Assembly: GCA_020435415.1 (NCBI GenBank)
Contig: JAGQZQ010000004.1
Location: 6,234 to 70,233, forward strand
DNA from: Flavobacteriales bacterium
Lineage (GTDB): Bacteria; Bacteroidota; Bacteroidia; JACJYZ01
DNA: 64,000 nucleotides
Direction: 5' to 3'
Each line of letters begins with the position of its first letter. Within the stretch, counting starts at the first letter, position 1. The notes beneath the pieces were generated by a model. That model saw only the letters and a list, made by a program, of their open reading frames with translations. It was not told the DNA's origin and made no database searches. Shown one piece after another: positions 3,227-55,088 of this stretch. The position numbers and the translations under genes are program-made.

Positions 3227-3229
3227 TAT

Positions 3230-4093: not shown

Positions 4094-4103
4094 GGAGCGC
4101 CCT

Positions 4104-6188: not shown

Positions 6189-6197
6189 GCATGATCC

Positions 6198-9882: not shown

Positions 9883-12800
9883 ATGATGTTCCTTACCACC
9901 ATATACCAACGTTTCCTTATTTGTCTGGGATGTTTCTTCCTTCTGACAGGACCCGTGCAGGCACAGCTCAGTAATAATGGGGCGCGCATCAAATTGTATC
10001 ATGGCGTAAAGCTTCAGGTACATGGTGATGTTGTGAACAAGAAAAGCGGAGAGTTTGATCTCCGTGGTACACTTCGCCTGAAAGGAGATTGGACAAATAA
10101 TGCAGATAATCCTGGCTTTAGCGATCAAAGCGGAAATGGTGCCGTAGAATTTTTTGGTGGATACAAGCAGTATGTTACTGGAGTTACCCCGACGGAGTTT
10201 TATAAACTTCGTCTGGGAAAATCCGATAATGCCGTGGAAGCAGATACAACAATCACTATCATGGATAGTTTGTTGCTTTCCGGTGGTGTGCTGATCACTT
10301 CTGCTTCCAATTACCTGATCATGAATGATGACGCCGGTGCCACCGGAGGTAATGGCAGCAGTTTCGTGCAGGGGCCGATGAAAAAGATCGGCGACGAAGC
10401 ATTTACTTTTCCACTGGGAAGAAGAGATAGCTATCAACCGTTGGTCATCACCGCACCCGCTTCCGCCACCGATGCATACGTGGCAGAATATTTTGATTAT
10501 GAACAGGATCTCGGTTTTGAAAAGGATGATTCATTAAACTACCTAAGTACTTGTGAATTCTGGAATCTGAACCGGACATCCGGAAGTTCGGATGTGACCA
10601 TCACCCTCGGATGGAACACGAATAGTTGTGACATTTCCAAATCCTCTGATGTCAGAATCGCCTATTGGCAAGGAGATTCCATATGGGCCAACCTGGGCAT
10701 CGGATCAACTTCGGGAGATGCTGACAACGGTACGATCCAGTCACCCGCTGCAGTGACCGCGTTTGGCTCTTTCACTCTCGCCAGTGTGATCCCCACCACC
10801 AATCTGCAAAGTGCTTTTTGTGATATGGCGGGCCTCACACTCTCGGATACACTCCTTGCTGATACGGTCAGCGGTGTGACCAGTTATGAGTTCTACATTT
10901 TTGATAGCACAGGTTTTGCCAGGTATGTTGTTCGCGATGATGTGTCATTGCCGCTTTCACTGGTCAGCGGATTGAAGTACGGAAGTACATACCAGGTACA
11001 GGTCCGGGTTCTGGTAGGAGAAAAGCTGGGTGCATATGGTGATACCTGTGATATTATTTTTGATGAATTCGCTCCTACTTCATTAACGTCAACATGGTGT
11101 GATGTGGATGATGTCAGCATTGCCGATACCCTCCAGGCCCAGGTTGTGCCAGGCGCGAAAGGCTATGAGTTTCTTGTTGAAGATACAGCTACCGCAGCTA
11201 CTTACAGCAAAACCTATGTGCGTAACAGCAGGGATGGTAAGTTGCCCTTGATTGCTATGGACAGCCTGGAGTATGGTATCACCTATCGTGTGGCGGTTCG
11301 TTATTTTGTGGGTGAGGATACCATTACATGGGGAGATACCTGTCACATTGAACTCATTGATCATCCCCTCACCAAACTGCAAAGTGAATGGTGCCCCGCA
11401 AATGATCTGACACTGGCAGACACCGTGGAAGCAGAGATTGTGCCCGGTGCACTCCACTACCAGTTTTATTTTGAAGATACCGCCACCGGCGCCACATTTA
11501 CTGCCGAGTATACCAATGATACATACCGCCTCGCACTTGACGATGTGGATGGTCTGGAATATGGTGTCACATACCTGGTCACGGCAAAAAGTATTGTAGG
11601 GTTGGACACGTCCGCATACGGCGATACCTGCTACATCGGACTCGATATACATCCCATTACCAAACTTCAGGTGCAGTACTGTGACAGCTCCGGTATCAGT
11701 ATTGGTGATACGCTGCTGGCAGATATCGTAGCTGGCGCAGAGAAATACCAGTTCCATCTGTTCAAAGGTGGGGAGATCGATACCGTATACACCCGGGGCA
11801 ATACCGATGGAAAATTCCCGCTGTCCGATATTCATGCACTTTTATTCGATTCAACTTACAGCATTGCTGTCAGGACCATTGTCGGCACGGATACTTCTGC
11901 ATATGGAGATACATGTATGATAACCCTTCTTGATAGTGTGCCGGTAACAATACTTGACGAGAACGCATGCTATAATTACCAACTGGATTTTGACGATGAA
12001 GTTTATGCCGAACTGGTGCCTGGCGCCTCGGTTTATCAATTCAAAGTGGAGAATGCGGATTCAGCATATAGCGAGACCTATACAAGGGAAAATGCCGACG
12101 GTCTCCTCGACCTCAATGAACTGACGGATCTTGAATACAACGTGCTTTACGATGTCATTGTCCGGGCCGCCATCAATAACGATACCGCACAGTGGGGGGA
12201 TACCTGCCGGATCAAACTTCTGCCCAGGACCCAGCTCATCACGGATGACTGCGATAAGCTCATGAATCTCCAGGATAGCCTGGTGGCGGATACTGTTCCA
12301 CTTGGTACGGGGTATGAGTTTACTTTTATAGATGATACCACCAATTTCCGCTTGTCATATGTCATAGATGCAACACACGGGATTCTGGTGCTGGATAGTG
12401 TTGAAGGCCTCAGGTACAATAAGACCTACCAGGTGCTGGTGCGTACCATCGTGGAAAGTGACACAGCCAACTACGGTGACACCTGCTCCCTGATGCTGAT
12501 CGAGCAACCACTGACCAAATTGATCACGGAAGACTGCGATGTGACAGACTTTGTGATGAGCGATACCCTTGAGGCAGACCCCGTGGTCGGTGCCACTTCT
12601 TATGTATTCTTTTTTGAGGATACCAACTCGGTCGACACCACCGGCTATATCGGAAAAGTGGTGGTGGACAGCACGGATGCGGTGTTGCCCTTGCTGCAGG
12701 CCACGGGACTGGAATACGGTGCCACCTATTATGTGCGTGTCGCACCCATCGTAGGTAGTTATGAAGGCGAGTATGGCGATACCTGTCTGGTTACTTTTAT

Positions 12801-15800
12801 CGAACACCCGCTGACAAATATCAACGAGACATGGTGCGACGTGGAGGACATTACCCTGGCGGATACCCTGCAAGCCGAGGAAGTGGATGGTGCACATACC
12901 TATCAGTTCTTTGTCTGGGATACCGCTGCTGCAGGTACCTACACGGAAACTTTTTACCGGTACAGCTATGACGGACTTCTTCCTTTGCACGATCTCGACA
13001 GTGCCCGTTATGGAATAACCTATGGCGTGAAAGTGGCTACCGTGGTGGGAGCAGATACCTCCGCTTATGGCGATACCTGTTATTTCGGCCTGACCGATCT
13101 TCCCGTTACACAACTTACCGATTACTGGTGCGACTCCATCGGCGTATCCATGGCCGATACCCTGGAGGCGGAAGCCATCGGTGGCGCAAAGACTTACATT
13201 TTCTTCTTCGAGGATACGGTGACGGCCTCCGAATTTATGGTCTCCGATACCATTTTTGATGATACCCCCCGTATACCTTTGTTGGATGTACCCGGGCTGA
13301 AATATGCCACCACCTATGCCGTGAGCGTAAAGGCCGTGATCGGGGGAGATACAACCGCCTTCGGGGATACCTGTCTCGTAAGTATGTTCGATAGCATTCC
13401 GGTGACCAAGCTTCATGACAGTTTCTGTGATTCACTCAATATCTCGCGTGATGCCATCGTGTATTCGGATCTTGTTGTGGGTGCCGATCAATACCTGTTC
13501 ATGCTGGTGGATACCGCAGCGGATGATACGCTTTCTTATATAAGACCCTATGGAGATGGTAAACTGATCCTGGCCGATGTGGAAGGCCTTGCCAATCCTG
13601 TAACCTATGCTGTCAGGGTACGCGTGGTGATGGATGAAGATACGGCCCAGTTCGGTGGAACATGCTACCTTCGAACGGATACGGCCACGCAGTTGGCAGC
13701 ATTGTACTGCGATACCATGAATGCAGGTATTACAGATACCCTTTATGCAGACCTTCTTACCGGTGCCACTGCTTACGGATTTATCCTTGCGGATACCGCG
13801 TCCAGCTTCACCACCACCTGGTGGCGTGACGATACCGATGGCATGCTGCCGCTGGGTGAAGTGGATAGCCTTGAATACGGGACCGTGTACGAGGTTCGGG
13901 TGAGAGCCGTCCTGGGTGGTGATACCACATACTATGGCAGTACCTGTACAATATCTATCGAATCGCATCCCGTTACGAAATTATCAACCACATGGTGCGA
14001 TGCCACGGATGTCGAGATCGGAGATACGCTGCAGGTGGATACCATAGCAAAAGCAAGCGCCTACCTGTTTGCCATCGAGGATACGGTGACCGGGCAGGAG
14101 TTCAAAGCATTCCATATGCGTGATTCTTCCGATGGCAAGCTACCGCTTGTGGATGTGGAGGGATTGACTTACGGTCGTACCTACCTGGTCAGTGTGCAGT
14201 CGATTGTTGGTGAAGAAATCAGTGCCTGGGGCGACACCTGTGAGATAACGCTGATCGAACATCCCACAACCCAACTGAATATTTTTTGGTGCGATAGCAA
14301 TGATATTAGTCTGTCTGATACGTTGGCGGCTGATATTGTACCGGGCGCTTCGATCTATGAGTTCGTGATCGAGGATACGGTGACCGGTGCTACTTACACC
14401 CAAACGCATTTCCGCAACGATGCCGACGGATTGCTCATTCTGGCGGATGTGGATAGCATGACCTATGGCCATACGTACCGTGTGTTTATCCGGACATATG
14501 CCGGTGACGATACCTCCGCATACGGCGATACCTGCCATATCGGTATCATCGACCATCCGACAACACAATTGCAGGAGCAATGGTGCGATAGTTCAGGTGT
14601 TGCGCTGAATGATACGGTAACCGCTGATACGGTCGGAGCAGCCTGGCGCTATGAGTTCGCCATCATGGATTCCGCCACGGCCTTTGCCACCACCTATATG
14701 AATGATGACGGCAATCCATTGCTGTTCCTCGGAGAGGTGGACAGTCTCTTTTATAAAAAGACCTACCTCGTGGCGGTGCGCACTTATGTGGCCGGCGATA
14801 CTTCCGCCTGGGGTGATACATGTAAAATACGGACACCGGATGAGGTGCCGTCCACCACACTTACATCCACCGATTGCAGTAAACGCGACCTTTCACTGGA
14901 TAATGTGCTCTCGGTGGATGAGATCGCCGGGGCCACCCGCTACCTCTTCGAGCTCGAGGACTCGGCCACGGCGGAATTGTTCACTTACATCGACAGTGTC
15001 GGAGGCGGCCTCGTACTGGGTGACATCGAAGACCTCGGTTATGGCAACGCTTATGATGTGTATGTGAAGGTGGTCTCAGGTGCGGATACGTCCGATTGGG
15101 GTGCCGCATGCACCATCGCCATGCTGGCCGATATTCCGGTCACTTCGCTGGATGCAGAGGGTTGCTACGCCGTGAACCTGGATACCACCGATGCGGTCTA
15201 TGCCGAGCCGGTGACCGGTGCCACGGAATACGATTTTCATATTTACAATACAGACCTGGCCTTTGATGAACTGTATACGGATACCACGGGTGCAGGTATC
15301 CTGCCGCTGGATAGCGTTTCAGGCTGGTCTTACGGTTATTCTTACAATGTGGAAGTGCGTTCCCTTGTTGCCGGTGAGCTGTCTTCATACGGCGGAACAT
15401 GCCCCATTACGCTTCTGTCGGATACCACATGGCATTTGTTTACCTGGGCCTCTTCCGCCAACGTGAGTATTGTGGATGGTGACATTACAAAGTCGGGTAC
15501 GGATGGCGACTGGACGGATGCATACGCAATTTCTGAAGACTCCATCGACAGCGGTGGCGACGGCTATGCGGAATTCTCCATGACCACCGAAACGGATACA
15601 TATATTTTCGGTCTTTCACAATCCGGTGCACCTTACGATAGCCTGGATCATGCCATCCTGATCGACAGTGGTGAGGTGTTTGTGATGGAGGCCGGTATAA
15701 ACCTGGGCCTGATGGCCACAGCGGAAGCCGGCGATGTGCTGAGCATCGAACGCATAGGCAGTGAAGTGGTATACAGAAACAACGGAGAGGCATTTTACAA

Positions 15801-18800
15801 TTCTTATCCTAACACCGACCTGGTGCTTCACGTGCAAATTCATCTGTTCAATGATGGCGCTGAAGTGGGGGCGATCGGTGGGTATGAAACACCGGGTCCG
15901 GCATTCCCTCCATGCAACCTGGATATGAACTGGTCTTCTTCGCGGTTCTTCAACGGCTATGGAACCGGCCAGGGCAATGTGATCGCAGAATCGAAAAGTA
16001 TCAGCGATTATATGGGAAGACCCATTCAGGGGCTGGTTAAGAATATGACTGAGAATGTGGTACTGGCTGCCGAACCGATGTATGATGACCTGGGGCGTCG
16101 AGTGGGACAAACACTGCCGGCTCCGATCAACAGCAGCCATCTGTGCTACAAGCAAAAGTTCGTGGTAAACCCGGACGGAGGTAAGTACAATACGAATGAC
16201 TTCGACAATTCCGATGATCATATTGCCCAGGCGGGCACTTATGGTACGGTGAACAACCCGAGGGCCGTTCGGGGCAGTGCTTTTGATATTGGTACACTGG
16301 GGTGGTACTACAGCGATAACAACACCCTGGAGTCCCACGTGGATGTGAGCAGCTATCCGTATTCCCGGGTGGAATATGATGACAACAACCCGGGCCAGGT
16401 CAAACGGGTCTCGGCAGTAGGCGATGAGTTGCGAATGGGTAAGGGACGTGAAGGTGTGGCCTTCTCCATGCCCGCTTCCGGTGAATTGCACTATGTCTTC
16501 GGTTATGCCAACGGGTGGACCGTAGATTACTTCGATACCCACGGCACGCCGGTGGCCGGGAATTTCCAGGCAACCTACAAGGTGATGAAGCATATCTCCG
16601 TGGACCCGAACGGCATCGAAACGGTGAGCTTCACCGATTATGACGGCAAAATGGTGGCTGCCTGTCGCAGCGGCAGTGTGGATGGCGCCAACGTACGGAC
16701 ACAGAAAGTACAGGAGTCGTTCCAGAAAGGAAAGCGTTGCATCGACATTCACCTGCCGGAAGGTTGCGAGTCGTCGCTGGAGCTGACTTCCGGCCAGGAT
16801 CTTATCTACAACATCCTTGACCTGGAAACCGATGAGCTCGTGAAGGTCAACGGATCCGTGAACTTCAGCGGCGGAAAACCATACCTCGACCCCGGCTTCT
16901 ACCGCATCATTCATGTAACGGATTACAACGACTACAGCGGTGCGCTTCCGGTGACCTACAACCTGAACTACCACGACTTCACCGCTTACTATTATGACCG
17001 GGCCGGTCGTCTGTCCTCCATCATTCCGCCTATTGGCATCGATGATACTTATGACCCTAAATCCGTTGTGGTAAGCAAGCGGAAGAAAAGCGAAAGTTTT
17101 AATGCCGGCAGTGGTATGTGGGGAGTCAGCAACAAACAGGCTGCCGGTTTTACACTGGATCTTGCCACTGCCGTTGATCCGTCCGGAAGTTCGTTTGCCA
17201 ACCTGGTCGTGACCCTGTCCAAATCCAACGTGGTCATATCCGATCCGCAAAACCCCGGACTCACTTCCGGCAGGTTAGCCTTCGGCACGACCACGGTGAA
17301 TACAGTCCCTTCGGATGTGACCGGTTTCGGGGTTATAGATGAAGATGATCCGCTGGCCCAGGGACCTGATCCGGGATGTGATTGCGGTCCGGGTGCCTGG
17401 TGCTTCACCGGTAGTGAGGCGGCGGCCATCAGTGATGCGGAAAACAAATGTTCCCGCATGGGGGCATGGGGCAAAGAAGCCATTGCCATTGACCGTGGAA
17501 GTGGTGAGTGGTGCCTGGCCTGCGGTGCTGACAAACCCATACCGGAAGGGCCCAAGTATGAGATCGAGGTGGCGCTGTACTGCAATGATGCACAGGGTGC
17601 ACTTATCCGGGATGACCTCGTCTTTTACGCCTATCACCATGAAGGTAAAACACCCGAATGGACCTTCCGGAGTGATCCCAATAGCCTCGGTACCAACACC
17701 GCTGCCGTTGAATGGGCTGTCATCGATCAGGACCTGATGGAAACCACCACCCAGGTTTATGTAAAAGTGGTTTCTATGAAGGAGTTTGATTATACCATCG
17801 GTGGAAAACTTGAAACCTTCGACTACGATCTGCTGGACGGTATGAAACTGTCTCTGAATGCCTCGGTGCATAACATCCCCGGCCTGCCGCAACATGCCCA
17901 GGCCACGCATTTTGAGTACAATTCCCTGGGCCAGCAATTGTCTTCCGTGACACCCGATGAAGGGAAAACGGAATTCGTGTACCGGAGGGACGGACAGATC
18001 CGTTTCTCACAGGATGCCCGTCAGGCTTCTGAAGATAAGTTTACCTACTTCAGCTACGATCGTTTCGGCCGGTTGGTGGAGTCAGGTGAATATGAATCTC
18101 CTTCATCCGGTGCGGGTGTCTACTTCCAGAACCATCAGGGGGAACACAGTGCACCCGGAGGTTGCAGTCCGTGTACCGCCGCAACGGATGCCTCCGTGCT
18201 GGAAGTCCTTGACGGACTGAACGACAGCTACTGTTCCGAAGTGATCACCACAACTTTTGATGTGGCGGACGATGCCGGCATCGCATCTGTGAATACGGAA
18301 CTCGGAAGCACATACAGCCAACGCTACCTTCTGGGCAAGGTCTCCAAAACAGAAAAGGAAGGCCTGTCCACCACATGGTACAGCTATGATGAACAGGGCC
18401 GTGTGGAATGGACAGCCCAACAGGTGGAAGGCATGACAACTTCCGGTACCGGTCACAAATTGCTGACCACCAACTATACGTACAACCGCTCCGGAACGGT
18501 GAGCGAGGTGGAATACCAGCAGGAGAGCTCAGGTACGGACAACGAACGTTTCGTGCACCTCTATGAATACGATAAGGACAACCGCCTCAGCGAAGTGGCA
18601 TCCCGGCGCTATGACCAATATGGCGCCAGCCTGGGTGACCATGCGGAAGCGACCTATGCCTATTATGTGCACGGTCCGCTCAAACGCACCGAACTGGGCG
18701 GCGATGTCCAGGGCATCGACTATACCTACAACATCAACGGCTGGCTGAAAGCCATCAACCATCCTGATCTGGATGCCGGAAAAGACCCCGGGCGTGATGG

Positions 18801-21063
18801 CTACGGAGGTGAACACGCAGCTTTCGGAAAGGATGCTTTTGGTATGGCGCTGGATTATTACGACAACGACTACCAACGCAGCTACACCGATCTGGTCAGC
18901 GGCCTGAGCTCCGACGTCAGCTATTACAACGGCAACATCAAATCGCAACGCTGGCAGAATGCCTACGCCAGCGCTGCCCCGCCGACGGGTGAGCAGTGGA
19001 TGTACTCCTACAACTATGACCACCGCTACTGGATTACCGGCGCGGATTTCGGTACCTTTGATCAGGCGACCGAAATGAAAACAGGCACGGACAACTACAA
19101 GGTGTGGAACATCACCTACGACAAGAACGGCAACCTGCAAACCCTGAACCGCAACGGCTACGGAGGCACCCAAAGCATGGACGAGTTCACCTACCACTAC
19201 AATACCTTTGACCTGCATGGTCAGACCCGCACGGGCAACCGCTTGCAGAAGGTGGACGATCCGGTGACGGCAGGCAACTATTCCATGGACTATGATGACG
19301 AACATAGCGGTACAGACTATGTTTATAATGATATAGGCCAGCTGGCCGAAGACCTGGAAGAAGGACTTTACTATACCTACAACCTTGCCGGACAGGTGAC
19401 AGGTGTTTACAATGATGCCTCTCACACCTCCCCGAAGGTGACCTATGCATATGATGAAACGGGCTTCCGTATTCTGAAGACAGATCACAGCGGTCCGAAA
19501 TACACCTGGTATGCCCGTGATGCAAGCGGCAACACCCTGGCCATTTATGAACGTGACGGAGGTGATCTGGAACAAACGGAGATCTCGCTCTATGGTTCTG
19601 GCCGGTTGGGTATTTATGATGTAGGGCTTGAGGTGTATGTGTATGAACTGACGGACCACCTGGGCAATGTGCGGGTGACGGTGAGCGGCGAGAAACAGGA
19701 AGACGAGGAATTCTATTTTGAAGATTTTGAAGGGATTGATGAAGAAGCAGGCATTTGTGTGGATGGAACCTGGGCATCAGGTTCCGGTGTGACGGCGGAT
19801 CTGGTGGATGGCCCGGATGGTAAGCGCATGGATCTGGTCATCACTCCTGTGTTTGAAGGTATTCATTTCTCGATATCAACGGAAGTGGGTGAGGAGTATA
19901 TCATCCGCCTGGATGCGGACATGGTTTCCGGTGTCATTGGCATAGAACCACGCAAATGCGGCGCCTCCACGGATATCTTAGGTTACCATGCGATCACGGA
20001 TGGCGTGAATGAGATGACGTTTACCGCTCTGACCACGACCACACGCATCAAGTTCGTGAACTCATCGGCCAATCCATCGGAGGTCTATCTTGACAACCTG
20101 CTTATCACCGGCCCCGGCCTGGGTACCCAGGGTTACACGGCGGAGATCTTAAGCATTGCGGACTACTATCCCTTTGGCATGGTGATGCCGGGTGCCGAAC
20201 ACAGCTATGATAACGGTTACCGCTACACCTACCAGGGCCAGGAAGGGGAAGCGGAAAGTGGGGTGGAGATGGGAGCCTTCCAATACCGCGGTTTTGATAG
20301 CCGGTTGGGAAGATGGATGAACCCGGATCAGGCAAAGCAGTTTCATAGCCCGTATGTGGGGATGGGGAATGTGCCGATTGCGGGAGTTGACGGGGATGGA
20401 AGATATATTCATATAATTGGTGGGAATGAAGAACTACTATTGAATGCAATAAATTTATATAGTCAACTCCCAGGAGCTAATATAGGCAAATTAAGGGAGT
20501 ATATGACGAGTCCTACAAAGCATATCTATATTAAATTTGGTGTAATAGGAACTGCTGGAAGTACACTAAATTTACCAGTTGGAACAGAGGAACACTTTCG
20601 TACTGTTGGTGGATTTAATACAGAGATACGCAGTGATCAAGAGTATCACCTTATCAGAGTTAGTAGTAATTTTTTGGAGGAGAAAGATGCAAAGTATCAA
20701 GCTCTCCTTGTAACTTTTGTTTTGGCACATGAACTAGATGCCCATGTCTTCTCCAATTTCTGGGAAGATAGAAACAGAACGGTGGCTGAGACAGAGACGC
20801 TTGGGCATAATGCATATGGTAATCATGGAATAGCAAGATCACCTGATGGATATTTGTTAAAGGAAACCCGTGATTTGGCTACACTAACTGATGCTGGCTC
20901 GAAGGCTTACAATCAGCTTACACAATTGTTAACCTGGAATGCATCACCTGAACCTATTAGTAAAGTGATCTCAAAGCAGGTCCATTATGTCTTGGGGAAA
21001 ACGATATTGTTAACCCAGCCGAGAAGAATTGTTAAAGTTCAGAATTTACCTAAATATAGATAA
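9883..21063 (+). CDS. Giant secreted RHS/YD-repeat polymorphic toxin (3726 aa). Architecture: signal peptide; N-terminal domain; 16 tandem Cys-bracketed ~95-aa domains; YD/RHS repeat shell; RHS core; variable low-GC C-terminal toxin domain.
   Basis: YD repeats are present (YDRAGRLSSI, YDRFGRLVESGEY, YSYDEQGRVEW, YEYDKDNRLSEV, YTYNINGWLKAINHPD). An RHS core-like end reads DYYPFGMVMPG ... YRGFDSRLGRWMNPDQAKQFHSPYVGMGNVPIAGVDGDGRY. The final ~215 aa are encoded by AT-rich DNA. Confidence 0.85.
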   Translation: MMFLTTIYQRFLICLGCFFLLTGPVQAQLSNNGARIKLYHGVKLQVHGDVVNKKSGEFDLRGTLRLKGDWTNNADNPGFSDQSGNGAVEFFGGYKQYVTGVTPTEFYKLRLGKSDNAVEADTTITIMDSLLLSGGVLITSASNYLIMNDDAGATGGNGSSFVQGPMKKIGDEAFTFPLGRRDSYQPLVITAPASATDAYVAEYFDYEQDLGFEKDDSLNYLSTCEFWNLNRTSGSSDVTITLGWNTNSCDISKSSDVRIAYWQGDSIWANLGIGSTSGDADNGTIQSPAAVTAFGSFTLASVIPTTNLQSAFCDMAGLTLSDTLLADTVSGVTSYEFYIFDSTGFARYVVRDDVSLPLSLVSGLKYGSTYQVQVRVLVGEKLGAYGDTCDIIFDEFAPTSLTSTWCDVDDVSIADTLQAQVVPGAKGYEFLVEDTATAATYSKTYVRNSRDGKLPLIAMDSLEYGITYRVAVRYFVGEDTITWGDTCHIELIDHPLTKLQSEWCPANDLTLADTVEAEIVPGALHYQFYFEDTATGATFTAEYTNDTYRLALDDVDGLEYGVTYLVTAKSIVGLDTSAYGDTCYIGLDIHPITKLQVQYCDSSGISIGDTLLADIVAGAEKYQFHLFKGGEIDTVYTRGNTDGKFPLSDIHALLFDSTYSIAVRTIVGTDTSAYGDTCMITLLDSVPVTILDENACYNYQLDFDDEVYAELVPGASVYQFKVENADSAYSETYTRENADGLLDLNELTDLEYNVLYDVIVRAAINNDTAQWGDTCRIKLLPRTQLITDDCDKLMNLQDSLVADTVPLGTGYEFTFIDDTTNFRLSYVIDATHGILVLDSVEGLRYNKTYQVLVRTIVESDTANYGDTCSLMLIEQPLTKLITEDCDVTDFVMSDTLEADPVVGATSYVFFFEDTNSVDTTGYIGKVVVDSTDAVLPLLQATGLEYGATYYVRVAPIVGSYEGEYGDTCLVTFIEHPLTNINETWCDVEDITLADTLQAEEVDGAHTYQFFVWDTAAAGTYTETFYRYSYDGLLPLHDLDSARYGITYGVKVATVVGADTSAYGDTCYFGLTDLPVTQLTDYWCDSIGVSMADTLEAEAIGGAKTYIFFFEDTVTASEFMVSDTIFDDTPRIPLLDVPGLKYATTYAVSVKAVIGGDTTAFGDTCLVSMFDSIPVTKLHDSFCDSLNISRDAIVYSDLVVGADQYLFMLVDTAADDTLSYIRPYGDGKLILADVEGLANPVTYAVRVRVVMDEDTAQFGGTCYLRTDTATQLAALYCDTMNAGITDTLYADLLTGATAYGFILADTASSFTTTWWRDDTDGMLPLGEVDSLEYGTVYEVRVRAVLGGDTTYYGSTCTISIESHPVTKLSTTWCDATDVEIGDTLQVDTIAKASAYLFAIEDTVTGQEFKAFHMRDSSDGKLPLVDVEGLTYGRTYLVSVQSIVGEEISAWGDTCEITLIEHPTTQLNIFWCDSNDISLSDTLAADIVPGASIYEFVIEDTVTGATYTQTHFRNDADGLLILADVDSMTYGHTYRVFIRTYAGDDTSAYGDTCHIGIIDHPTTQLQEQWCDSSGVALNDTVTADTVGAAWRYEFAIMDSATAFATTYMNDDGNPLLFLGEVDSLFYKKTYLVAVRTYVAGDTSAWGDTCKIRTPDEVPSTTLTSTDCSKRDLSLDNVLSVDEIAGATRYLFELEDSATAELFTYIDSVGGGLVLGDIEDLGYGNAYDVYVKVVSGADTSDWGAACTIAMLADIPVTSLDAEGCYAVNLDTTDAVYAEPVTGATEYDFHIYNTDLAFDELYTDTTGAGILPLDSVSGWSYGYSYNVEVRSLVAGELSSYGGTCPITLLSDTTWHLFTWASSANVSIVDGDITKSGTDGDWTDAYAISEDSIDSGGDGYAEFSMTTETDTYIFGLSQSGAPYDSLDHAILIDSGEVFVMEAGINLGLMATAEAGDVLSIERIGSEVVYRNNGEAFYNSYPNTDLVLHVQIHLFNDGAEVGAIGGYETPGPAFPPCNLDMNWSSSRFFNGYGTGQGNVIAESKSISDYMGRPIQGLVKNMTENVVLAAEPMYDDLGRRVGQTLPAPINSSHLCYKQKFVVNPDGGKYNTNDFDNSDDHIAQAGTYGTVNNPRAVRGSAFDIGTLGWYYSDNNTLESHVDVSSYPYSRVEYDDNNPGQVKRVSAVGDELRMGKGREGVAFSMPASGELHYVFGYANGWTVDYFDTHGTPVAGNFQATYKVMKHISVDPNGIETVSFTDYDGKMVAACRSGSVDGANVRTQKVQESFQKGKRCIDIHLPEGCESSLELTSGQDLIYNILDLETDELVKVNGSVNFSGGKPYLDPGFYRIIHVTDYNDYSGALPVTYNLNYHDFTAYYYDRAGRLSSIIPPIGIDDTYDPKSVVVSKRKKSESFNAGSGMWGVSNKQAAGFTLDLATAVDPSGSSFANLVVTLSKSNVVISDPQNPGLTSGRLAFGTTTVNTVPSDVTGFGVIDEDDPLAQGPDPGCDCGPGAWCFTGSEAAAISDAENKCSRMGAWGKEAIAIDRGSGEWCLACGADKPIPEGPKYEIEVALYCNDAQGALIRDDLVFYAYHHEGKTPEWTFRSDPNSLGTNTAAVEWAVIDQDLMETTTQVYVKVVSMKEFDYTIGGKLETFDYDLLDGMKLSLNASVHNIPGLPQHAQATHFEYNSLGQQLSSVTPDEGKTEFVYRRDGQIRFSQDARQASEDKFTYFSYDRFGRLVESGEYESPSSGAGVYFQNHQGEHSAPGGCSPCTAATDASVLEVLDGLNDSYCSEVITTTFDVADDAGIASVNTELGSTYSQRYLLGKVSKTEKEGLSTTWYSYDEQGRVEWTAQQVEGMTTSGTGHKLLTTNYTYNRSGTVSEVEYQQESSGTDNERFVHLYEYDKDNRLSEVASRRYDQYGASLGDHAEATYAYYVHGPLKRTELGGDVQGIDYTYNINGWLKAINHPDLDAGKDPGRDGYGGEHAAFGKDAFGMALDYYDNDYQRSYTDLVSGLSSDVSYYNGNIKSQRWQNAYASAAPPTGEQWMYSYNYDHRYWITGADFGTFDQATEMKTGTDNYKVWNITYDKNGNLQTLNRNGYGGTQSMDEFTYHYNTFDLHGQTRTGNRLQKVDDPVTAGNYSMDYDDEHSGTDYVYNDIGQLAEDLEEGLYYTYNLAGQVTGVYNDASHTSPKVTYAYDETGFRILKTDHSGPKYTWYARDASGNTLAIYERDGGDLEQTEISLYGSGRLGIYDVGLEVYVYELTDHLGNVRVTVSGEKQEDEEFYFEDFEGIDEEAGICVDGTWASGSGVTADLVDGPDGKRMDLVITPVFEGIHFSISTEVGEEYIIRLDADMVSGVIGIEPRKCGASTDILGYHAITDGVNEMTFTALTTTTRIKFVNSSANPSEVYLDNLLITGPGLGTQGYTAEILSIADYYPFGMVMPGAEHSYDNGYRYTYQGQEGEAESGVEMGAFQYRGFDSRLGRWMNPDQAKQFHSPYVGMGNVPIAGVDGDGRYIHIIGGNEELLLNAINLYSQLPGANIGKLREYMTSPTKHIYIKFGVIGTAGSTLNLPVGTEEHFRTVGGFNTEIRSDQEYHLIRVSSNFLEEKDAKYQALLVTFVLAHELDAHVFSNFWEDRNRTVAETETLGHNAYGNHGIARSPDGYLLKETRDLATLTDAGSKAYNQLTQLLTWNASPEPISKVISKQVHYVLGKTILLTQPRRIVKVQNLPKYR
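10798..15420 (+). repeat. 16 diverged tandem coding repeats of about 285 nt, one domain each, with the pattern WCD...ADTL.A..V.GA..Y.F...DT......Y.....DG.LPL..VD.LEYG.TY.V.VR...G.DTSAYGDTC.I
   Basis: Read directly from the translation of 9883..21063. Every unit begins with a Cys (WCD / YCD / FCD) and ends with GDTC. Confidence 0.8.
20407..21063 (+). other. Variable C-terminal toxin (CT) module of the RHS protein, unassigned family
   Basis: It begins immediately after the RHS-core motif VDGDGRY. GC content drops abruptly at about 20400 and stays low through the next gene. It contains LAHELDAHVF, which is HExxxH and not the canonical HExxH. Confidence 0.6.
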
Positions 21064-21113
21064 ATAAAGATTTATTAATAATTGCTGTTAATGCAACCAT
21101 TTAATCGATAAGT

Positions 21114-21833
21114 ATGATGCGATATCTTTTGCTTTACATTATAATGCTCGGGGTACCATCGGTAAATTCAAATAATATTCAAAGACCATTTCCGCAGATG
21201 CCGGAACAGCAAACTTGTCTTTGTTATGTTTTTGTTCCACGAGCTGGTAGTGAGGATTTACTGAAAATAACAGAAATGCCCCTGTATTTGTCTAAAGAAC
21301 CTATGTTGTTGGGAGGGGATGTTTGGTATCCATTCCGTTTTGGAAATACTATAGAATTTAGATATGCACTAGATACTTCAGCTGTTTTGAGTGACTACAT
21401 TGATAGCATAGGTACAACCTACTTTCTTCGTCTTAATAATAATGTCGTTGAGTTTAGAGATGCTATTGGTGTACCTCCTGGTTTTACTGTTAACAGCCCT
21501 TTGCGCTTATTTGATTTTAATAATCCTGAACAGAAAACCGAACTTTTAGCAGTACCCTATCTTCGATATCATTTGCTTGAAAAGAATAGCATTATTTATG
21601 ATTATGCTTTGAAGGATACTTTGCATTTATACGATCTTAAAGGGTTTGAACAAGTGTATAAAAATAAGACAAATCATAGTGATAGTTCGAGCAATCAATA
21701 TTTAATAGGTCAAACTGCTGCATCAGTGGCACCATTGTTCGAAAAATTAGTTGTGGGTGAGAGGTATGGGGTGTTATATTTTGAATACACTTTTGATGGG
21801 GCAGTATATAGGTGTCAAAGTGCGAATCGTTAA
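21114..21833 (+). CDS. Candidate cognate immunity protein for the RHS C-terminal toxin (hypothetical, has a signal peptide)
   Basis: 239 aa, beginning 50 nt downstream of the toxin gene on the same strand. It shares the same low GC as the CT module. The N-terminus MMRYLLLYIIMLGVPSVNS looks like a signal peptide. Confidence 0.5.
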   Translation: MMRYLLLYIIMLGVPSVNSNNIQRPFPQMPEQQTCLCYVFVPRAGSEDLLKITEMPLYLSKEPMLLGGDVWYPFRFGNTIEFRYALDTSAVLSDYIDSIGTTYFLRLNNNVVEFRDAIGVPPGFTVNSPLRLFDFNNPEQKTELLAVPYLRYHLLEKNSIIYDYALKDTLHLYDLKGFEQVYKNKTNHSDSSSNQYLIGQTAASVAPLFEKLVVGERYGVLYFEYTFDGAVYRCQSANR

Positions 21834-21851
21834 GACGAAAAACCCTACGCT

Positions 21852-21874
21852 GGCGCGGATTTGCAATCCGCGCC
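21852..21874 (+). terminator. Perfect 10-bp hairpin (ggcgcggatt-tgc-aatccgcgcc) downstream of the immunity gene, with no U-tract
   Basis: Seen in the sequence. The missing T-run makes intrinsic-terminator function uncertain. Confidence 0.3.
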
Positions 21875-21965: not shown

Positions 21966-22421
21966 GTGCCCCGGTTTTTAACAATGAGCACTATTGAAGC
22001 AATGAATATAGGAAATAGCATACGTGTTTTTGTTCCGGTTTTTATGCTGACGGTATCCTTTGCATACGCCCAGAATGATACCCCGGCAACCATCCCTTCC
22101 ACGGTAGCAGATACCGCACAGGCGGCGCAGGACCTGCCTGTGCGTGATAAGAGCGGGATGAGTGCTGAGGACTACCGTATTAAAGCACAAAAACAAAGAA
22201 AGACCGCCAATACATGGCTGATCATGTCCAGCGCGTTGAGTGGGTCATATGCCGCTATTCCGGGGGATATGTCCATGCAGTCTGTTTCAGATGGACAGGA
22301 AACCGCAAGGGTATTGTTCGGCATCGCCGCTTTCGGTGTGGCCATGGCATCGCTCATTCATTTTATAAGCGCTTCAGACAATAACAAGAAAGCAGATAAA
22401 CGAACTCCTGAAAATCCCTGA
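21966..22421 (+). CDS. Small hypothetical secreted/membrane protein
   Basis: 151 aa. It has hydrophobic N-terminal (VFVPVFMLTVSFAYAQ) and C-terminal (VLFGIAAFGVAMASLIHFI) segments and normal GC. Confidence 0.4.
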   Translation: MPRFLTMSTIEAMNIGNSIRVFVPVFMLTVSFAYAQNDTPATIPSTVADTAQAAQDLPVRDKSGMSAEDYRIKAQKQRKTANTWLIMSSALSGSYAAIPGDMSMQSVSDGQETARVLFGIAAFGVAMASLIHFISASDNNKKADKRTPENP

Positions 22422-22427
22422 AGTAAT

Positions 22428-25400
22428 ATGATCATACCTCGTTTTATTCGCCGTATCCTGGCGGTTGCCTTTGCTCTGGTCATGACCGAAGCGGCCGTAG
22501 CCCCCACCGTCTCCCTGGCACTTACCAACAATATGCATCAACAGGAATACGCAAATTACGAGAGTAATAGCTCTTCGGATATGGTCAACCTGATAACCGG
22601 TAACTTCACATGGTCTATACCCACCGTATTTGTACCCGGACCTGAAGGAGGTTTCTCTATGCCCTTGTCATATCACGGAGGTATTCAGACAAACCAGGAA
22701 GCATCCTGGGTGGGCTTAGGCTGGAGCCTCAATCCCGGAGCTATTGTAAGAAATATTTCTCAGTATCCGGATGATGCAGTCACCGAACGGCAACTGGTTA
22801 CGGCATGGGATCCGGGTGCAAATGGCTCGGTTGTTTCGATGCCCCTCTTTACTTTCACTAACCATTCCGAAGAAGGAACAGGCGTTTCAATAGGCCTGGG
22901 AAGTTTGGTCAGGGTCGGATTCGGTAACGATGCCGGATTGACTTTGGTGGGTGTAACATTGAATGATGAAGGTGTAAAGGTGGATCCCGTGGGTATAGCA
23001 ATGGCAGCTATGACGGTATTATCTGCCGGAGCTTCTGCGGCAGCCACGGTAGCAGCTGGCGCAACAACCTCTGCAGCGATAACAAGTGAAGTTATGGGTT
23101 TGGCAGTAAGTGAGTTTACCGGGATGGGATTGAACTCTCTCATGTCAGGCCGAACATCCAATATAGCCAACATGAACGGATGGAAATTCGAATCGAGCAC
23201 GAGGAATCCGCCCTTCTTTTCTTTGAGTGACTGGAAGTACTATCTGAACCTGAAAGCGGATCATACCATGAAGGGTTCCATGTACCTCGGAACGCATATT
23301 GCAGCACCGAATGCGCAGACTCCCAGTACCTATATACACCGGGGCGAACGTTTTGACTCTGACTACGAACCTGCCAAGCCTTTTGGAAGTTTTGAAGCCA
23401 GCGATATGCATATGACCGTGGAGGATTCTTATCATAAGTCCTATACTCCAACGAGCATTGCGTATGATAATTATAATGTAATGGGTGGTGGAATCAGCGG
23501 CTCGATTACACCATACAGACTGGATATAGGAACCCTGGCATTCCCTAATCAGGCATTGGATATCAGCAGGTATCAGCCGGTGAAGTTTAAGGAGGAGAAT
23601 TTTTACGGTGGCTTGGAATTCTGGGAAAATCCTGTACAGTTCAAGTACGTCGGCGAGGTGGCTAATGCTTACAGATATCATGCGGGAAGTGCACATGAAG
23701 AAACGTATGATACACGCTTTGTGGAATCCGATGACGATTTTTCAGGTATTGCATATGCCATTAACGATCCTGCAGGTACTAGGCCCAACATAAGAAATTA
23801 TAAAATCAGAGATGAATACGTATACAATGGTTATCAGGCAGAACCAGATCGCGCTCCTGCCGAGGGGTTAAAAAACAGGCATTTGGCCGGCGCAAGGCAT
23901 ATAAGTTATTTTACCAATAAGGAAATAGCGTCCGAATATGCCGTACAATTGGTCGATCTCACGGGTTTTGTGGACTTCCTTCCCCCGGAGAACGATCAGC
24001 ATTATATGAGCGGACAACAGCAAACAAGAGAAGAGTTCAGACAGTCTCTTCCGGTCGCAGGTATCGGTGGCTTTTCGATAACCAGGGAAGATGGCATGGT
24101 GTTCCACTATTCACTGCCTGTATATAATGTAAAGCAACATTCGTTATCAAAAAAAGGCACAGGTGATGGTAGCTTCTCAACGGTTTCTATGGATGAACCT
24201 TATGCGGTGACGTGGTTACTCACGGCCATCACCGGACCCGATTTTGTTGATCGGGGAGGTGGGTTGCTTAAGAAGGATGCCAACCATTATATTGATGAAC
24301 ATGATTGGGGTTATTGGGTTAAACTGGACTATGGCAGGTTTGCTTCACAATACAAATGGAGGTTCCCTTATTGGGGTTTTACGAATACGTCGGATGGGGC
24401 TTCTTATACCACAGGATTAAAAGAAACCTACTACCTGAATACGATCTCAACCCGTAGTCATACCGCACTGTTTATTAAAGATTTAAGAAAAGATGGCAGA
24501 GGGAGTTATAATATATATCAGCCCGATATTAACCCGAATATTAACGCTGCGTCCAGTTCAAAATATGATTATCCTGAGATATTACTTCCTTCGTCAAGTC
24601 TTAAACTAAAAGAAGTTATTGTTCTTAGAAACGAGGACTACCACTTGCTGACACAAGTTGGTGATGGAGGAAAAGGATTACACTGGGCGGTGGGGGCCGA
24701 GAATAACAGCAAGATTGAAAATGGAGATACCTTCGATTATGTGTTGGATAGCGAAGATATTACTTCGGACATTAGAATCTTTCTCAGATACAACCAATTG
24801 AGCAGGATAGAGTTTGAAATGGACTATTCATTATGCAAAGAAACACTGAATTCATTTGACCTGAATACGGCAGATCGTTCATGGATGGACGGAACCTTAC
24901 CTACATATACAGGGAAAGATGGTAAACTTACTTTAAAAGAGGTGAAAGTTTATGGCAGAAAGGATGTCCGGGCCATGCCTGCTTATAAATTCTATTACAG
25001 TGGTGAAAATCCGAACTATCGACTGAACCACTATGATGCCTGGGGAATGTATAAGCCCTCCGGAGAGAACCACATGGAAGGAAGACATCCGGAAAATGCA
25101 GGAATAGCATGGTCACTGACAAAGATAGAAACTCCGCTGGGCTCAACTGTTGAAATCGACTATGAGCGCGACACCTACAGCCAGGTGAGTGGCTATCCGG
25201 TTAAGATCAAAGTTCCCCTGAATGCGAGTAACTATAATAATAAGACAAAGACCGTCTTTTATTCGGCATATGGAGACTTAAAAGACGGTTTGCTGGAGGC
25301 TGGAGATGAAATTGAAGTTCATGCATTCGCAACTTGTAACCATGGTTTGCCTCAATCATTTGTGGTTAATCAAACCGTAACCGAGGTTGGAAATGATTAC

Positions 25401-27494
25401 TTCAAGATAAGTGATGCTATTGATTGTTCGAATAAAACGGTGAACTTCCCGTATTCTTCCTATATTTTGATTACGCCTAAGAAAAAGTACGGCGGGGATT
25501 TAAGGGTCTCCAAAATTACAGCGAGTAATACCGAAGGACATGAGAGCCAGACACGGTATATATATACCCAGAATCATCGGTCGGATGGGGTGAGTTCTGG
25601 CGTATGTTCCATGGAATCAGAGCTTGACCGAGGAGAAGATCTTGAAATCTATGACCTTTATGATTGTCCTCAAACACCCGTATTGTATCAATATGTGGAC
25701 ATTCTTCAAGGACAGTTTGAAGGTGATGATGAGAATGATTATCTGACAAGAAGCGAATATACGTTTGCTGTACCGCATCATGAAATGCTCAAACTGTATA
25801 CCAAGACTTACGGTACTGAGTTAACCAATGGTAGTGTCACGGTTGCCAGTCATATAATAAAAAATTACACATCACGTATAGGTCAGCTGGAGGAGGTAAA
25901 GGAACTTGATAAACGGAGCAATACCTATAAAAGCGTAAAGTACAATTATTGGGATGGGAAGCAAAGTGATCTGGCAAAGTATGATTATATCGGGCAATTT
26001 ACTGAGAGCACGTTACTTTGCGACCGTGTACGTTATCAGTATACAGAGGATGGTGAAACGCACTGGTCAGCAGCTGATAAATTCTTACGCACAACCAAGG
26101 TTACGTATCCATCAATCCTTCAATCCGTTATCCTTACCGAAAAAGGTCAGTCCAAAACCATCACCAACACGGCCTATGATTTTCTGACGGGCAATGTATT
26201 GGAAACGGAGTACAGGAATTCCTTCGGGGATGAGTACAAGACCATGTCCGTGCCGGCATACAAAATATATGATGCAATGGGTTCCAAAGTGGATGACATC
26301 AACAACAAGAATATGCTCACCCAGGAAGGTGCCCAGTACCTCTACACCAAAGTGGATGGGGCGTGGAAGCCCATTGCCGCCTCCGTCCAGACCTGGAATG
26401 ATGAATGGAATTACCGGGAATACAATGCCAGCAAGAAAGCCTACGAGGACAAAGGAACTTCTGCATCCCAAACGCCCGTATGGCGCAAGTATAAAAGCTA
26501 TATATATAAATCATTGCTGGACGACGAACGCAAGGGCCTCCTCATGAATGCATCCAATACCGGGGTGGCGGATATCAACGGCTATACCGGCGCCGATGAC
26601 TTTGATTGGACGCCCGGAGAGGAAGTCGCCAACGAAGCCAAAGGCTGGCTCGTAGCCAGTGAGATCACCCGCTACAATCATTATTCGCATCCTCTGGAAG
26701 TGAAGGATATCAATGGCAATTACGCTTCCACCCGCCTGGATGCCACGGGAATTCATATGGTTGCTTCTGCCGCGGGCGCTGATTATAACAGTATGGCCTC
26801 CTCCGGTTTTGAGCAATCATACAGCCCCGCCACCGGCGTCACGCTCTTCGACAGCGAGATCACCAACGGCCAGATGCGCAATACACGCGAAGTACTGGCA
26901 CACACCGGTAGCTATGTTGCGAAGGTGTCCGCCGGACAATATGGCCCTGCATACATTGTCAAATATACCCCCGGTAATACGGATAATATTGAGCGGGGCC
27001 GCACTTACCGCGCCAGCGTTTGGGTGCATAAGAACAGCCCCGATGAGGCAACATTGGTCGTGCACGTCAGCGGTACAAATGCACCTAACGGGGAGACACC
27101 GTTCAGCATTTCCAAAAGCTCAACCAATGCCATCAAGGCCGGCGACTGGTACCTGCTGAACCTGGATGTGGCCATCCCTTCCAATTATGTATCCTCGGGA
27201 GGCAATGCCCATGACGATGTACGCGTCTATCTCTGGAATCCCGGAAGCAAGGCGGCCTACTTTGATGATTTCCGCTTCCGTCCCATTGATGCACCGATGA
27301 CGTCTACGGTTTACGATGAACTCACAGGCCAGGTTGTGGCTACCCTTGATAACGAGAACTTCGCCACCACATACCGCTATGATCCCGCCGGTCGCCTGGT
27401 GGAGGTGAAAAGGGAGTTTGCCGATAAGGCAGGTGAGACCGGGGGCTTTGTCAAGGTGAGTGATTATAAGTATAACTTTGGCCGGCAACCATAG
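22428..27494 (+). CDS. SpvB/TcB-like large secreted protein: N-terminal SpvB domain, C-terminal YD repeats, no RHS core or toxin tip
   Basis: It has a signal peptide. The segment LITGNFTWSIPTVFVPGPEGGFSMPLSYHGGIQTNQEASWVGLGWSLNPGAIVRN matches the SpvB / TcB N-terminal signature (S.P...P.G..G..P.LSY..G....G.GWSL....I.R). The C-terminus carries YD repeats (TVYDELTGQVV, YRYDPAGRLVEV). Confidence 0.6.
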   Translation: MIIPRFIRRILAVAFALVMTEAAVAPTVSLALTNNMHQQEYANYESNSSSDMVNLITGNFTWSIPTVFVPGPEGGFSMPLSYHGGIQTNQEASWVGLGWSLNPGAIVRNISQYPDDAVTERQLVTAWDPGANGSVVSMPLFTFTNHSEEGTGVSIGLGSLVRVGFGNDAGLTLVGVTLNDEGVKVDPVGIAMAAMTVLSAGASAAATVAAGATTSAAITSEVMGLAVSEFTGMGLNSLMSGRTSNIANMNGWKFESSTRNPPFFSLSDWKYYLNLKADHTMKGSMYLGTHIAAPNAQTPSTYIHRGERFDSDYEPAKPFGSFEASDMHMTVEDSYHKSYTPTSIAYDNYNVMGGGISGSITPYRLDIGTLAFPNQALDISRYQPVKFKEENFYGGLEFWENPVQFKYVGEVANAYRYHAGSAHEETYDTRFVESDDDFSGIAYAINDPAGTRPNIRNYKIRDEYVYNGYQAEPDRAPAEGLKNRHLAGARHISYFTNKEIASEYAVQLVDLTGFVDFLPPENDQHYMSGQQQTREEFRQSLPVAGIGGFSITREDGMVFHYSLPVYNVKQHSLSKKGTGDGSFSTVSMDEPYAVTWLLTAITGPDFVDRGGGLLKKDANHYIDEHDWGYWVKLDYGRFASQYKWRFPYWGFTNTSDGASYTTGLKETYYLNTISTRSHTALFIKDLRKDGRGSYNIYQPDINPNINAASSSKYDYPEILLPSSSLKLKEVIVLRNEDYHLLTQVGDGGKGLHWAVGAENNSKIENGDTFDYVLDSEDITSDIRIFLRYNQLSRIEFEMDYSLCKETLNSFDLNTADRSWMDGTLPTYTGKDGKLTLKEVKVYGRKDVRAMPAYKFYYSGENPNYRLNHYDAWGMYKPSGENHMEGRHPENAGIAWSLTKIETPLGSTVEIDYERDTYSQVSGYPVKIKVPLNASNYNNKTKTVFYSAYGDLKDGLLEAGDEIEVHAFATCNHGLPQSFVVNQTVTEVGNDYFKISDAIDCSNKTVNFPYSSYILITPKKKYGGDLRVSKITASNTEGHESQTRYIYTQNHRSDGVSSGVCSMESELDRGEDLEIYDLYDCPQTPVLYQYVDILQGQFEGDDENDYLTRSEYTFAVPHHEMLKLYTKTYGTELTNGSVTVASHIIKNYTSRIGQLEEVKELDKRSNTYKSVKYNYWDGKQSDLAKYDYIGQFTESTLLCDRVRYQYTEDGETHWSAADKFLRTTKVTYPSILQSVILTEKGQSKTITNTAYDFLTGNVLETEYRNSFGDEYKTMSVPAYKIYDAMGSKVDDINNKNMLTQEGAQYLYTKVDGAWKPIAASVQTWNDEWNYREYNASKKAYEDKGTSASQTPVWRKYKSYIYKSLLDDERKGLLMNASNTGVADINGYTGADDFDWTPGEEVANEAKGWLVASEITRYNHYSHPLEVKDINGNYASTRLDATGIHMVASAAGADYNSMASSGFEQSYSPATGVTLFDSEITNGQMRNTREVLAHTGSYVAKVSAGQYGPAYIVKYTPGNTDNIERGRTYRASVWVHKNSPDEATLVVHVSGTNAPNGETPFSISKSSTNAIKAGDWYLLNLDVAIPSNYVSSGGNAHDDVRVYLWNPGSKAAYFDDFRFRPIDAPMTSTVYDELTGQVVATLDNENFATTYRYDPAGRLVEVKREFADKAGETGGFVKVSDYKYNFGRQP

Positions 27495-27506
27495 AATAAC
27501 CATGCA

Positions 27507-54817: not shown

Positions 54818-55052
54818 GATTTAGTGATACATACAGTGATGATGCGGCGGAAGGTAAAATTTCACATAGGCAAGTCCAGTATAGTTTTTTTATTGAACGC
54901 CACACATTAGATGAATATTTTATGGTACTGGTTGTCAAACTTTTTTCTAACATCAAATGATGTGGTTTTAGTAGTGTAATAAAAGGGTAGATATTATTGA
55001 TTTTGTGATAAAGTGGAGAGGAAGGCACGACTAAAATCAAAAGAAGTAAAAC

Positions 55053-55088
55053 CAAAATCACAATTAACCGTAGACGGATGTGATTTTG
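55053..55088. promoter_or_regulatory. 10-bp perfect inverted repeat (caaaatcaca-N16-tgtgattttg) in the AT-rich leader of the polysaccharide locus
   Basis: Seen in the sequence about 520 nt upstream of the sugar-transferase start. It is a candidate operator site or RNA hairpin. Confidence 0.3.

Follow-up and report, generated by a model that had tools for sequence, protein, structure and literature searches.

The 64,000-nucleotide (nt) stretch analysed here, called the window below, comes from an uncultured Flavobacteriales bacterium (assembly GCA_020435415.1, contig JAGQZQ010000004.1, positions 6,234 to 70,233 of the forward strand) and carries a very long rhs-type gene followed directly by a small open reading frame (ORF). 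We read this part of the chromosome as the probable variable end of an RHS polymorphic toxin-immunity locus, in which the C-terminal tip of the RHS protein would be the toxin and the small ORF would encode its immunity protein. In the ORF list of the window, the frame for the RHS protein of 3726 amino acids (aa) lies at 9883..21063 (+) and the 239-aa ORF at 21114..21833 (+). An exact look-up finds both in GenBank, as MCB0395300.1 and MCB0395301.1 respectively, on the 72-kb contig of a Flavobacteriales bacterium metagenome-assembled genome (MAG), where each is labelled 'hypothetical protein'. An earlier reading made from the DNA letters alone (the sequence-only reading) had proposed a swapped toxin and immunity module at this place, and the gene positions and peptide strings that it quoted all agree with the ORF list and the translation. 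The features at the end of the RHS gene and beyond it are given here, where GC is the fraction of G+C and GC3 the same fraction at third codon positions.

20278..20400 (+): FQYRGFDSRLGRWMNPDQAKQFHSPYVGMGNVPIAGVDGDG, where the RHS core ends, with a variant form of the PxxxxDPxGL motif for demarcation and autocleavage (defined in PMC8765631)
20400..22046 (no strand): low-GC block of tip, spacer, 239-aa ORF and downstream spacer, from the likelihood breakpoints and the GC profile
20401..21063 (+): C-terminal tip of 220 aa (RYIHIIGG...PKYR and stop), presumed toxin domain and a database orphan, from library and database searches
20722..20745 (+): LAHELDAH (aa 3614-3621), an HExxxH motif that closes a hydrophobic segment resembling a helix, candidate metal and catalytic site
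21114..21833 (+): 239-aa ORF, presumed cognate immunity protein, 50 nt after the tip stop codon, on the same strand and with GC and GC3 as in the tip
21114..21170 (+): probable Sec (signal peptidase I) signal peptide of the 239-aa ORF, MMRYLLLYIIMLGVPSVNS, cleaved before NN, read from the translation by eye
21852..21874 (+): G+C-rich hairpin GGCGCGGAT-TTGCA-ATCCGCGCC, 19 nt after the stop codon of the ORF and unique in the window

The DNA changes composition at the end of the RHS core. Breakpoints were placed with a maximum-likelihood two-segment scan of GC, and the GC profile was drawn in 200-nt windows. In that scan the best break falls at base 20400, with a log-likelihood gain of 41 and almost equally good positions at 20395-20404. 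This base completes the codon of the last G in ...PIAGVDGDG, so that the change in GC coincides, give or take a codon or two, with the point where the RHS core ends. Across this point GC drops from 0.535 to 0.37. In the profile it stands at 0.565 in 20200-20399 and 0.33 in 20400-20599, and then keeps between 0.30 and 0.43 up to about 22000; a further breakpoint, beyond which GC is back at its usual level, lies at about 22046 (gain 28). The sequence-only reading had drawn a low-GC cassette at 20300-21840 with its drop at the core boundary near 20400. Its start at the core end stands, and the shift appears in both GC and GC3, while its downstream limit does not: the block of about 1.65 kb runs on through the spacer to about 22046. 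The segment 20401-21833 is the lowest in GC of its length in the window. The second-lowest stretch, at 54818-55607 (0.335), is a 790-nt gap without any ORF of at least 150 aa, flanked by a TonB-like gene and a sugar-transferase gene.

The two genes of the block also resemble each other by codon position. GC at the first, second and third codon positions is 0.47/0.37/0.28 in the tip and 0.47/0.34/0.27 in the 239-aa ORF, compared with 0.56/0.41/0.63 in the 1500 nt before the break; the tip and the ORF therefore share a composition unlike that of the RHS body. At 36-37% GC, the chance that a frame stays open is about 4e-8 for the 220 codons of the tip and about 1.5e-8 for the 239 codons of the ORF. 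Both are therefore real genes, as they stay open far longer than expected by chance in such AT-rich DNA. Around the cassette we found no flanking direct or inverted repeats beyond 12-15-mers at chance level.

Related loci show what happens at this junction elsewhere. Using the last 500 residues before the tip as query, in a scan of one genome per species confirmed by tblastn, we found distant relatives in five Bacteroidota: a Cytophagales MAG, Aquimarina, Aquaticitalea, Psychroflexus and a Flavobacteriales MAG. The cores of Aquimarina, Aquaticitalea and Psychroflexus, the three loci with a resolved junction, end in ...SPY.GMGNNP....D.[DN]G and are followed by tips of 217, 226 and 216 aa, respectively, which are unrelated to each other. 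One of these tips is a Peptidase_M91 (Psychroflexus) and two belong to no family; none of the three has any cross-similarity with the 220-aa tip. GC falls after the core in all three resolved loci, and in each a small ORF (163-253 aa) starts within 10 nt of the tip stop codon. In the Cytophagales MAG a 150-aa ORF comes straight after the rhs gene. Because these relatives share the junction and the GC drop yet carry unrelated tips and small ORFs, the end of the core is a swap point, and the footprint of an exchanged toxin and immunity pair that the sequence-only reading had described is supported. Two of the four downstream ORFs of the relatives carry a lipoprotein signal peptide and two carry no signal peptide, which indicates that exported immunity proteins occur in this clade and vary with the tip rather than with the carrier.

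Two of the related loci hold more than one tip. In Psychroflexus tropicus (locus L005, 9424-10699) an orphan module lies about 1 kb downstream of the main rhs gene, made up of a core fragment (...GRWLTTDP...SPYWGMNNNP...) with a different tip and then a lipoprotein-type small ORF; this is a classic displaced toxin-immunity cassette. Aquaticitalea lipolytica (L004, 480-9690) has two tandem rhs genes with different tips; behind the first tip comes a 253-aa lipoprotein in which 'YYxNGxLK'-type (MORN-like) motifs recur and which resembles known immunity families. A six-frame search of the 64-kb window found no further core fragments or orphan tips.

The sequence-only reading could assign the tip to no family that it recognized, and neither the libraries nor an exhaustive protein search changed this. 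Nothing in Pfam (E <= 10), NCBIfam, PADLOC, PHROGs or the PDB sequences matches the tip, and even at E <= 10 none of the Tox- and Ntox-type toxin families of Pfam is hit. A word-indexed search of 5.8e9 clusters returned nothing, and scans of metagenome contigs, viral contigs and plasmids gave no match. Exhaustive phmmer against 1.84e9 representative proteins returned only the tip itself and one 243-aa protein (P0003), which we rejected as a homologue: it is a tandem-repeat artefact whose score is that of four copies of a 43-aa match. P0003 consists of four copies of a 56-aa repeat, probably translated satellite sequence, and its E-value of 2e-5 comes from summing weak matches, an instance of how repeat proteins inflate phmmer scores. 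An AlphaFold2 model made from the single sequence, without an alignment, is unusable (predicted local distance difference test, pLDDT, 31). The tip contains no cysteines and no GxSxG motif, and no long hydrophobic segment was seen in it by eye. It is a singleton of a known kind, the RHS polymorphic-toxin tip.

The 239-aa ORF is presumed, from its place and composition, to encode the cognate immunity protein. Its N-terminus has a basic residue, an 11-residue hydrophobic core and small residues at -3/-1, and no lipobox cysteine. AlphaFold2, again from the single sequence, puts a helix at residues 3-12, in a model that is itself unusable (pLDDT 35). If the protein is exported, the target of the tip would most simply lie in the envelope. 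No match to the ORF was found in Pfam (E <= 10), NCBIfam, PADLOC, PHROGs or the PDB, and the described immunity families (Imm, SUKH and MORN-type) are unmatched. In the word-indexed search of 5.8e9 clusters and in the metagenome, viral and plasmid scans it matches itself only; its orphan status is less secure than that of the tip, because it was searched less sensitively, the exhaustive search having covered the tip. Two contigs in ENA from other samples carry the ORF at 99.9-100% identity, and they provide no allelic diversity because they represent the same strain. Downstream, the hairpin at 21852..21874 has a predicted energy of -23.1 kcal/mol (z = -3.1). It has no T-run and was missed by a terminator scan that depends on one; it is probably the operon terminator that closes the unit.

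The protein that carries the tip is an RHS/YD protein, to judge from its repeats, its core and its relatives, and a very divergent one. Its parts are these:

9883..21063 (+): complete rhs-type gene, 3726 aa, from the ORF list, the translation and the exact look-up
9883..9963 (+): N-terminal segment MMFLTTIYQRFLICLGCFFLLTGPVQA of the RHS protein, a probable Sec signal peptide cleaved before Q, read from the translation by eye
10780..15417 (+): run of sixteen repeats in tandem, about 97 aa per unit, with a G-D-T-C-like motif at the end of each; the motifs occur at aa 386-1837, 93-100 aa apart
15922..20400 (+): divergent RHS/YD-repeat shell and C-terminal core, from YD_repeat, a weak DUF6443 match, YD motifs, relatives and the SGS4 match
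19678..20160 (+): insertion of about 160 aa in the RHS core, between the DHLGNVRV and DYYPFGM motifs, from motif coordinates and comparison with Psychroflexus

The N-terminus is probably a Sec signal peptide. The repeat region (aa ~300-1845), which has weak, sub-threshold Pfam matches (fn3, DUF7112), presumably forms an extended stalk; its 97-aa units look like a long series of immunoglobulin-like modules, each with conserved cysteines. In the shell, the NCBIfam model YD_repeat (TIGR01643) reaches 23.4 bits (cut-off 15.8), and at least ten YD-like motifs of the form [YF]x[YF][DN]xx[GN] occur at aa 2369-3188. Pfam gives only sub-threshold fn3, DUF6443 and DUF7112 on the carrier. The last 90 residues of the core align to the solved RHS-type protein SGS4 (9on3) with an E-value of 7.8e-8, and the alignment ends with DPDGEF opposite the DGDGRY of the carrier. 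A profile with the equivalent core segment of the relatives matches the structures of TcdB2-TccC3, YenC2 and Rhs proteins that belong to type VI secretion systems (T6SS). Between DHLGNVRV and DYYPFGM, Psychroflexus has 19 aa where the carrier has about 160, and this insertion is probably why the RHS core model TIGR03696 misses the carrier. The insertion belongs to no family (no Pfam match for 19501-20160 at E <= 10). In the relatives a similar-looking acidic segment ending 'IDNI.L' occurs at a different site, further upstream in the shell.

The PxxxxDPxGL motif, which marks where the RHS barrel ends, is required for aspartyl autoproteolysis (PMC8765631). In the carrier FQYRGFDSRLGRW is located at aa 3466-3478 and DGDGRY at aa 3503-3508 (nt 20389-20406). 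The demarcation motif reads PIAGVDGDGR, in which P, D and G are kept and two positions are changed (P to G, L to R); the relatives have DPNGG, DPDGR and DIDGG. Conserved aspartates of the relatives and of SGS4 line up with two in the carrier, one in NPD (aa 3482) and one in VDGDG (aa 3503). Neither the carrier nor the window ORFs of at least 150 aa contain PAAR, VgrG, Hcp, TssB/C or other components of the T6SS, the type IX secretion system (T9SS) or Tc toxins.

These observations suggest a sequence of steps. The block would have been gained as a toxin and immunity unit by recombination at the conserved core-coding sequence, and in the protein the tip would be enclosed in the RHS shell and released by the aspartyl autoprotease of the core at about the bond between DGDG and RY. 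Both of the aspartates that line up with those in other cores are present in the carrier. Gain by recombination together with enclosure and autocleavage appears quite likely. The RHS protein would then be exported by Sec, displayed or released, and deliver the tip to neighbouring bacteria, a route suggested by the fact that parts of the T6SS and T9SS are not nearby. The 239-aa protein would be exported to the periplasm of the producer and bind the tip there, placing the target of the tip in the envelope; this step has slightly better than an even chance of being right. The last and weakest step would make the tip a metal-dependent hydrolase of zincin-like type, with LAHELDAH as an HExxH motif expanded by one residue and a His or Glu from the downstream segment AETETLGHNAYGNHG as an additional ligand.

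We put the probability that the locus is a toxin-immunity cassette at about 0.7, a figure that leaves the enzymatic activity of the tip aside. Several observations weigh against it. TIGR03696 and the Pfam RHS_repeat model stay below threshold on the carrier, and the demarcation motif reads DGDG, with G in place of the canonical P of DPxG. The tip has no homologue, and toxicity, immunity and cleavage are all read from position. For the 239-aa ORF the signal peptide is a reading by eye, and no delivery machinery was identified. On the other side, none of the three findings that the sequence-only reading had named as contrary to its proposal was made: the tip matches no described toxin family, GC and GC3 do shift, and the ORF did not turn out to be a housekeeping gene with relatives elsewhere.

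As the sequence-only reading had noted, LAHELDAH is an HExxxH rather than an HExxH motif, and GHNAYGNHG follows at aa 3641-3649. Active zincins with HExxxH exist (dipeptidyl peptidase III, TldD and some polyvalent-protein peptidases). The M91 hypothesis was raised because the tip of the Psychroflexus relative is an M91 peptidase with a similar layout: that NleD-like tip reads ITLAHELGHLYS, and the M91 tip of a plasmid-borne RHS protein of Persicobacter starts DWIHII and reads LGHELAH, while the 220-aa tip starts RYIHII and reads VLAHELDAHVFS. On this alignment the HExxxH of the tip would be the M91-type helix plus one residue. Relaxed-gap Smith-Waterman comparison gave z = 2.3-3.1 against three of four M91-like tips and 0.1 against the fourth, compared with 1.5 and -0.65 against unrelated tips, which is a hint of M91 kinship at the sequence level and not evidence for it. 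The low-confidence secondary structure from AlphaFold2 (strand, helices, strands and a long helix with HELDAH) is compatible with a zincin and proves nothing.

A series of results counts against the zincin step. Pfam M91 (PF14891) is unmatched by the tip at E <= 10, and hhalign of the tip against M91 gives a probability of 0.3%. A hidden Markov model (HMM) built from seven M91-like RHS tips scores the tip at -0.4 bits, a value reached or exceeded by 311 of 2000 shuffles (p ~0.16), and the segment that it aligns is the active-site helix alone (tLaheL.ghlys against VLAHELdAHVFS). The ENxxR...LPLRTHY block, invariant in M91-like tips, is absent, with only a weak match at ...KQVHYV..., and the AlphaFold2 models of both proteins are too poor to use (pLDDT 31 for the tip, 35 for the ORF). 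Of composition-matched shuffles, 4.4% contain a bare HExx(x)H by chance. BLASTP of the tip against the tips of the relatives, the Psychroflexus M91 tip included, gave nothing. With BLASTP, hhalign and the custom HMM non-significant, and Smith-Waterman no more than suggestive, we rejected an M91 or NleD-like assignment. Other candidates were dropped by eye: a deaminase (HAE...PCxxC), an LAS/M15 peptidase and a GxSxG lipase, for each of which a second motif is lacking, and an aspzincin (GTxDxxYG), since the tip has HNAYG at a different spacing. A zincin-like metal-dependent hydrolase is still the most likely single activity, though a doubtful one.

The strongest alternative accepts the cassette and parts from our account at its last step: the tip would not be a metallo-hydrolase, the HExxxH would be coincidental, and the activity could be that of a nuclease, lipase, glycosidase, ADP-ribosyltransferase or membrane-active protein, or belong to a wholly new fold. 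We give it a chance a little short of even. Every test of relatedness to zincins or M91 was non-significant, the bare motif turns up in more than one in twenty-five shuffles, and the tips of the sister loci are of many unrelated kinds, all of which speaks for it. Against it stand the missing cysteines, GxSxG motif and (by eye) long hydrophobic segment, the failure of every Pfam Tox- and Ntox-type family to match, and the setting of the HE motif in a hydrophobic helix of the kind typical of zincins, which recurs in 0.1% of shuffles, for a pattern picked after seeing the data.

A second alternative concerns the victim. The tip could act on eukaryotes, grazers or hosts, like TcC tips and NleD-type effectors, and the 239-aa ORF would then be a secreted accessory or unrelated to it. 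The carrier is huge, Sec-exported as judged by eye and borne on a repeat stalk without T6SS context, and among solved structures the one most closely related to its core is that of an RHS-type salivary protein from a mosquito; moreover, the only faint family likeness of the tip is to M91/NleD-type peptidases, which are anti-host effectors. We nevertheless consider this reading improbable. Tip and ORF lie in one block of foreign composition closed by one terminator, a small ORF directly follows the tip gene in four of four relatives, in signal-less or lipoprotein forms as in known immunity genes, and one relative has an orphan module of core fragment and tip with its own small ORF, which is typical of interbacterial systems. 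Least likely is that the cassette is a decaying or inactive relic whose missing homologues reflect the drift of an unselected tail, for although no homologue turned up anywhere searched and the single lineage, with contigs of two other samples nearly identical to it, makes purifying selection unmeasurable, the 220- and 239-codon frames are uninterrupted against the chances given above, the tip is in frame with an intact 3506-aa carrier, and the signal-peptide-like start and the terminator hairpin are intact.

The genes around the cassette add several observations. Directly upstream of the rhs locus, at window positions 18-7355, lies a cluster resembling a type II secretion system (T2SS) or type IV pilus, with a GspF/PilC platform protein (6198-7355, 263 bits), an N-methyl pseudopilin (5676-6188), a weakly GspM-like protein (1262-1792) and several ORFs without family. 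Such systems are uncommon in Flavobacteriales, and it is speculation that these genes aid the export of the Sec-dependent RHS protein. Just upstream of the rhs gene, at 7825-9849 (+), a 674-aa protein resembles phage tail spikes or tail fibres (PHROGs, E 4e-52) and ends in a Peptidase_S74 intramolecular-chaperone domain; no other ORF of the window has a phage-type family match. Downstream, an operon at 21966-28037 (+) encodes three proteins: one of 145-151 aa with a signal peptide and a C-terminal hydrophobic segment, one of 1688 aa that has CBM_4_9 and, at the very end of the C-terminus, one YD repeat, but no RHS core or tip, and an OmpH/Skp-like chaperone. The 1688-aa protein was considered as a paralogue of the RHS protein and rejected on comparison.

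The toxin-immunity cassette that we favour has clear counterparts. Among RHS toxins with immunity genes (the T6SS proteins RhsA of Pseudomonas protegens, Tse5 and Tse15, the Gram-positive WapA, and the TcB-TcC cocoons) we find the same YD-repeat shell, a PxxxxD.xG-type motif where the core ends, a tip of about 220 aa that is hypervariable, a small gene behind it and a drop in composition at the junction. The carrier described here differs from them in having no PAAR, VgrG, T6SS context, TcA or TcB, in its Sec-type signal, its sixteen repeats of about 97 aa and its 160-aa core insertion, in escaping TIGR03696, and in reading DGDG rather than DPxG. The RHS-borne Peptidase_M91 tips of Psychroflexus tropicus (L005) and Persicobacter psychrovividus (pPP9, L008) share with our tip the type of carrier, a length of 216-221 aa, an initial short hydrophobic strand ([YW]IHII or IYV) and a central LxHEL..H helix, and the ORF downstream of the L005 tip has a lipoprotein signal peptide. 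Our tip departs from them with HELDAH in place of HELGH or HELAH and in having no ENxxR...LPLRTHY block. The HExxxH zincins (dipeptidyl peptidase III/M49, TldD/M103 and the polyvalent-protein metallopeptidases) show that a zinc motif expanded by one residue can be catalytically competent, but no sequence relationship to the tip was detected, and they are mostly much larger and not RHS-borne. Finally, the TANFOR-domain toxins of Bacteroidetes are large proteins with an N-terminal signal peptide and polymorphic C-terminal toxins whose export route is unsettled (PMC7073777). The carrier is likewise a large Bacteroidota protein with a signal-peptide-like N-terminus and a polymorphic C-terminus; it differs in its RHS shell and in having no N-terminal family match, in libraries that were not checked for a TANFOR model.

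Taken at its fullest, the locus could represent a new class of envelope toxin, with an HExxxH metallo-hydrolase and a periplasmic immunity protein of new fold, carried on a Sec-exported, stalked RHS protein without a T6SS or Tc translocator and possibly aided by the adjacent T2SS/pilus-like genes. We think this combination unlikely as a whole. Orphan tips on polymorphic toxins are expected by specialists, and the logic of the locus is textbook and opens no long-standing question. The carrier is an example of a Bacteroidota RHS protein with a Sec signal and a long stalk and without a T6SS, a class whose delivery route is not understood. Variable RHS tips have a record of yielding new enzymatic toxins, and also tools derived from these, and this one has no detectable relative among roughly 15 billion predicted proteins, which makes annotation by transfer impossible. 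If the tip is active, it would be a new toxin domain, and the protein encoded next to it a new immunity protein.

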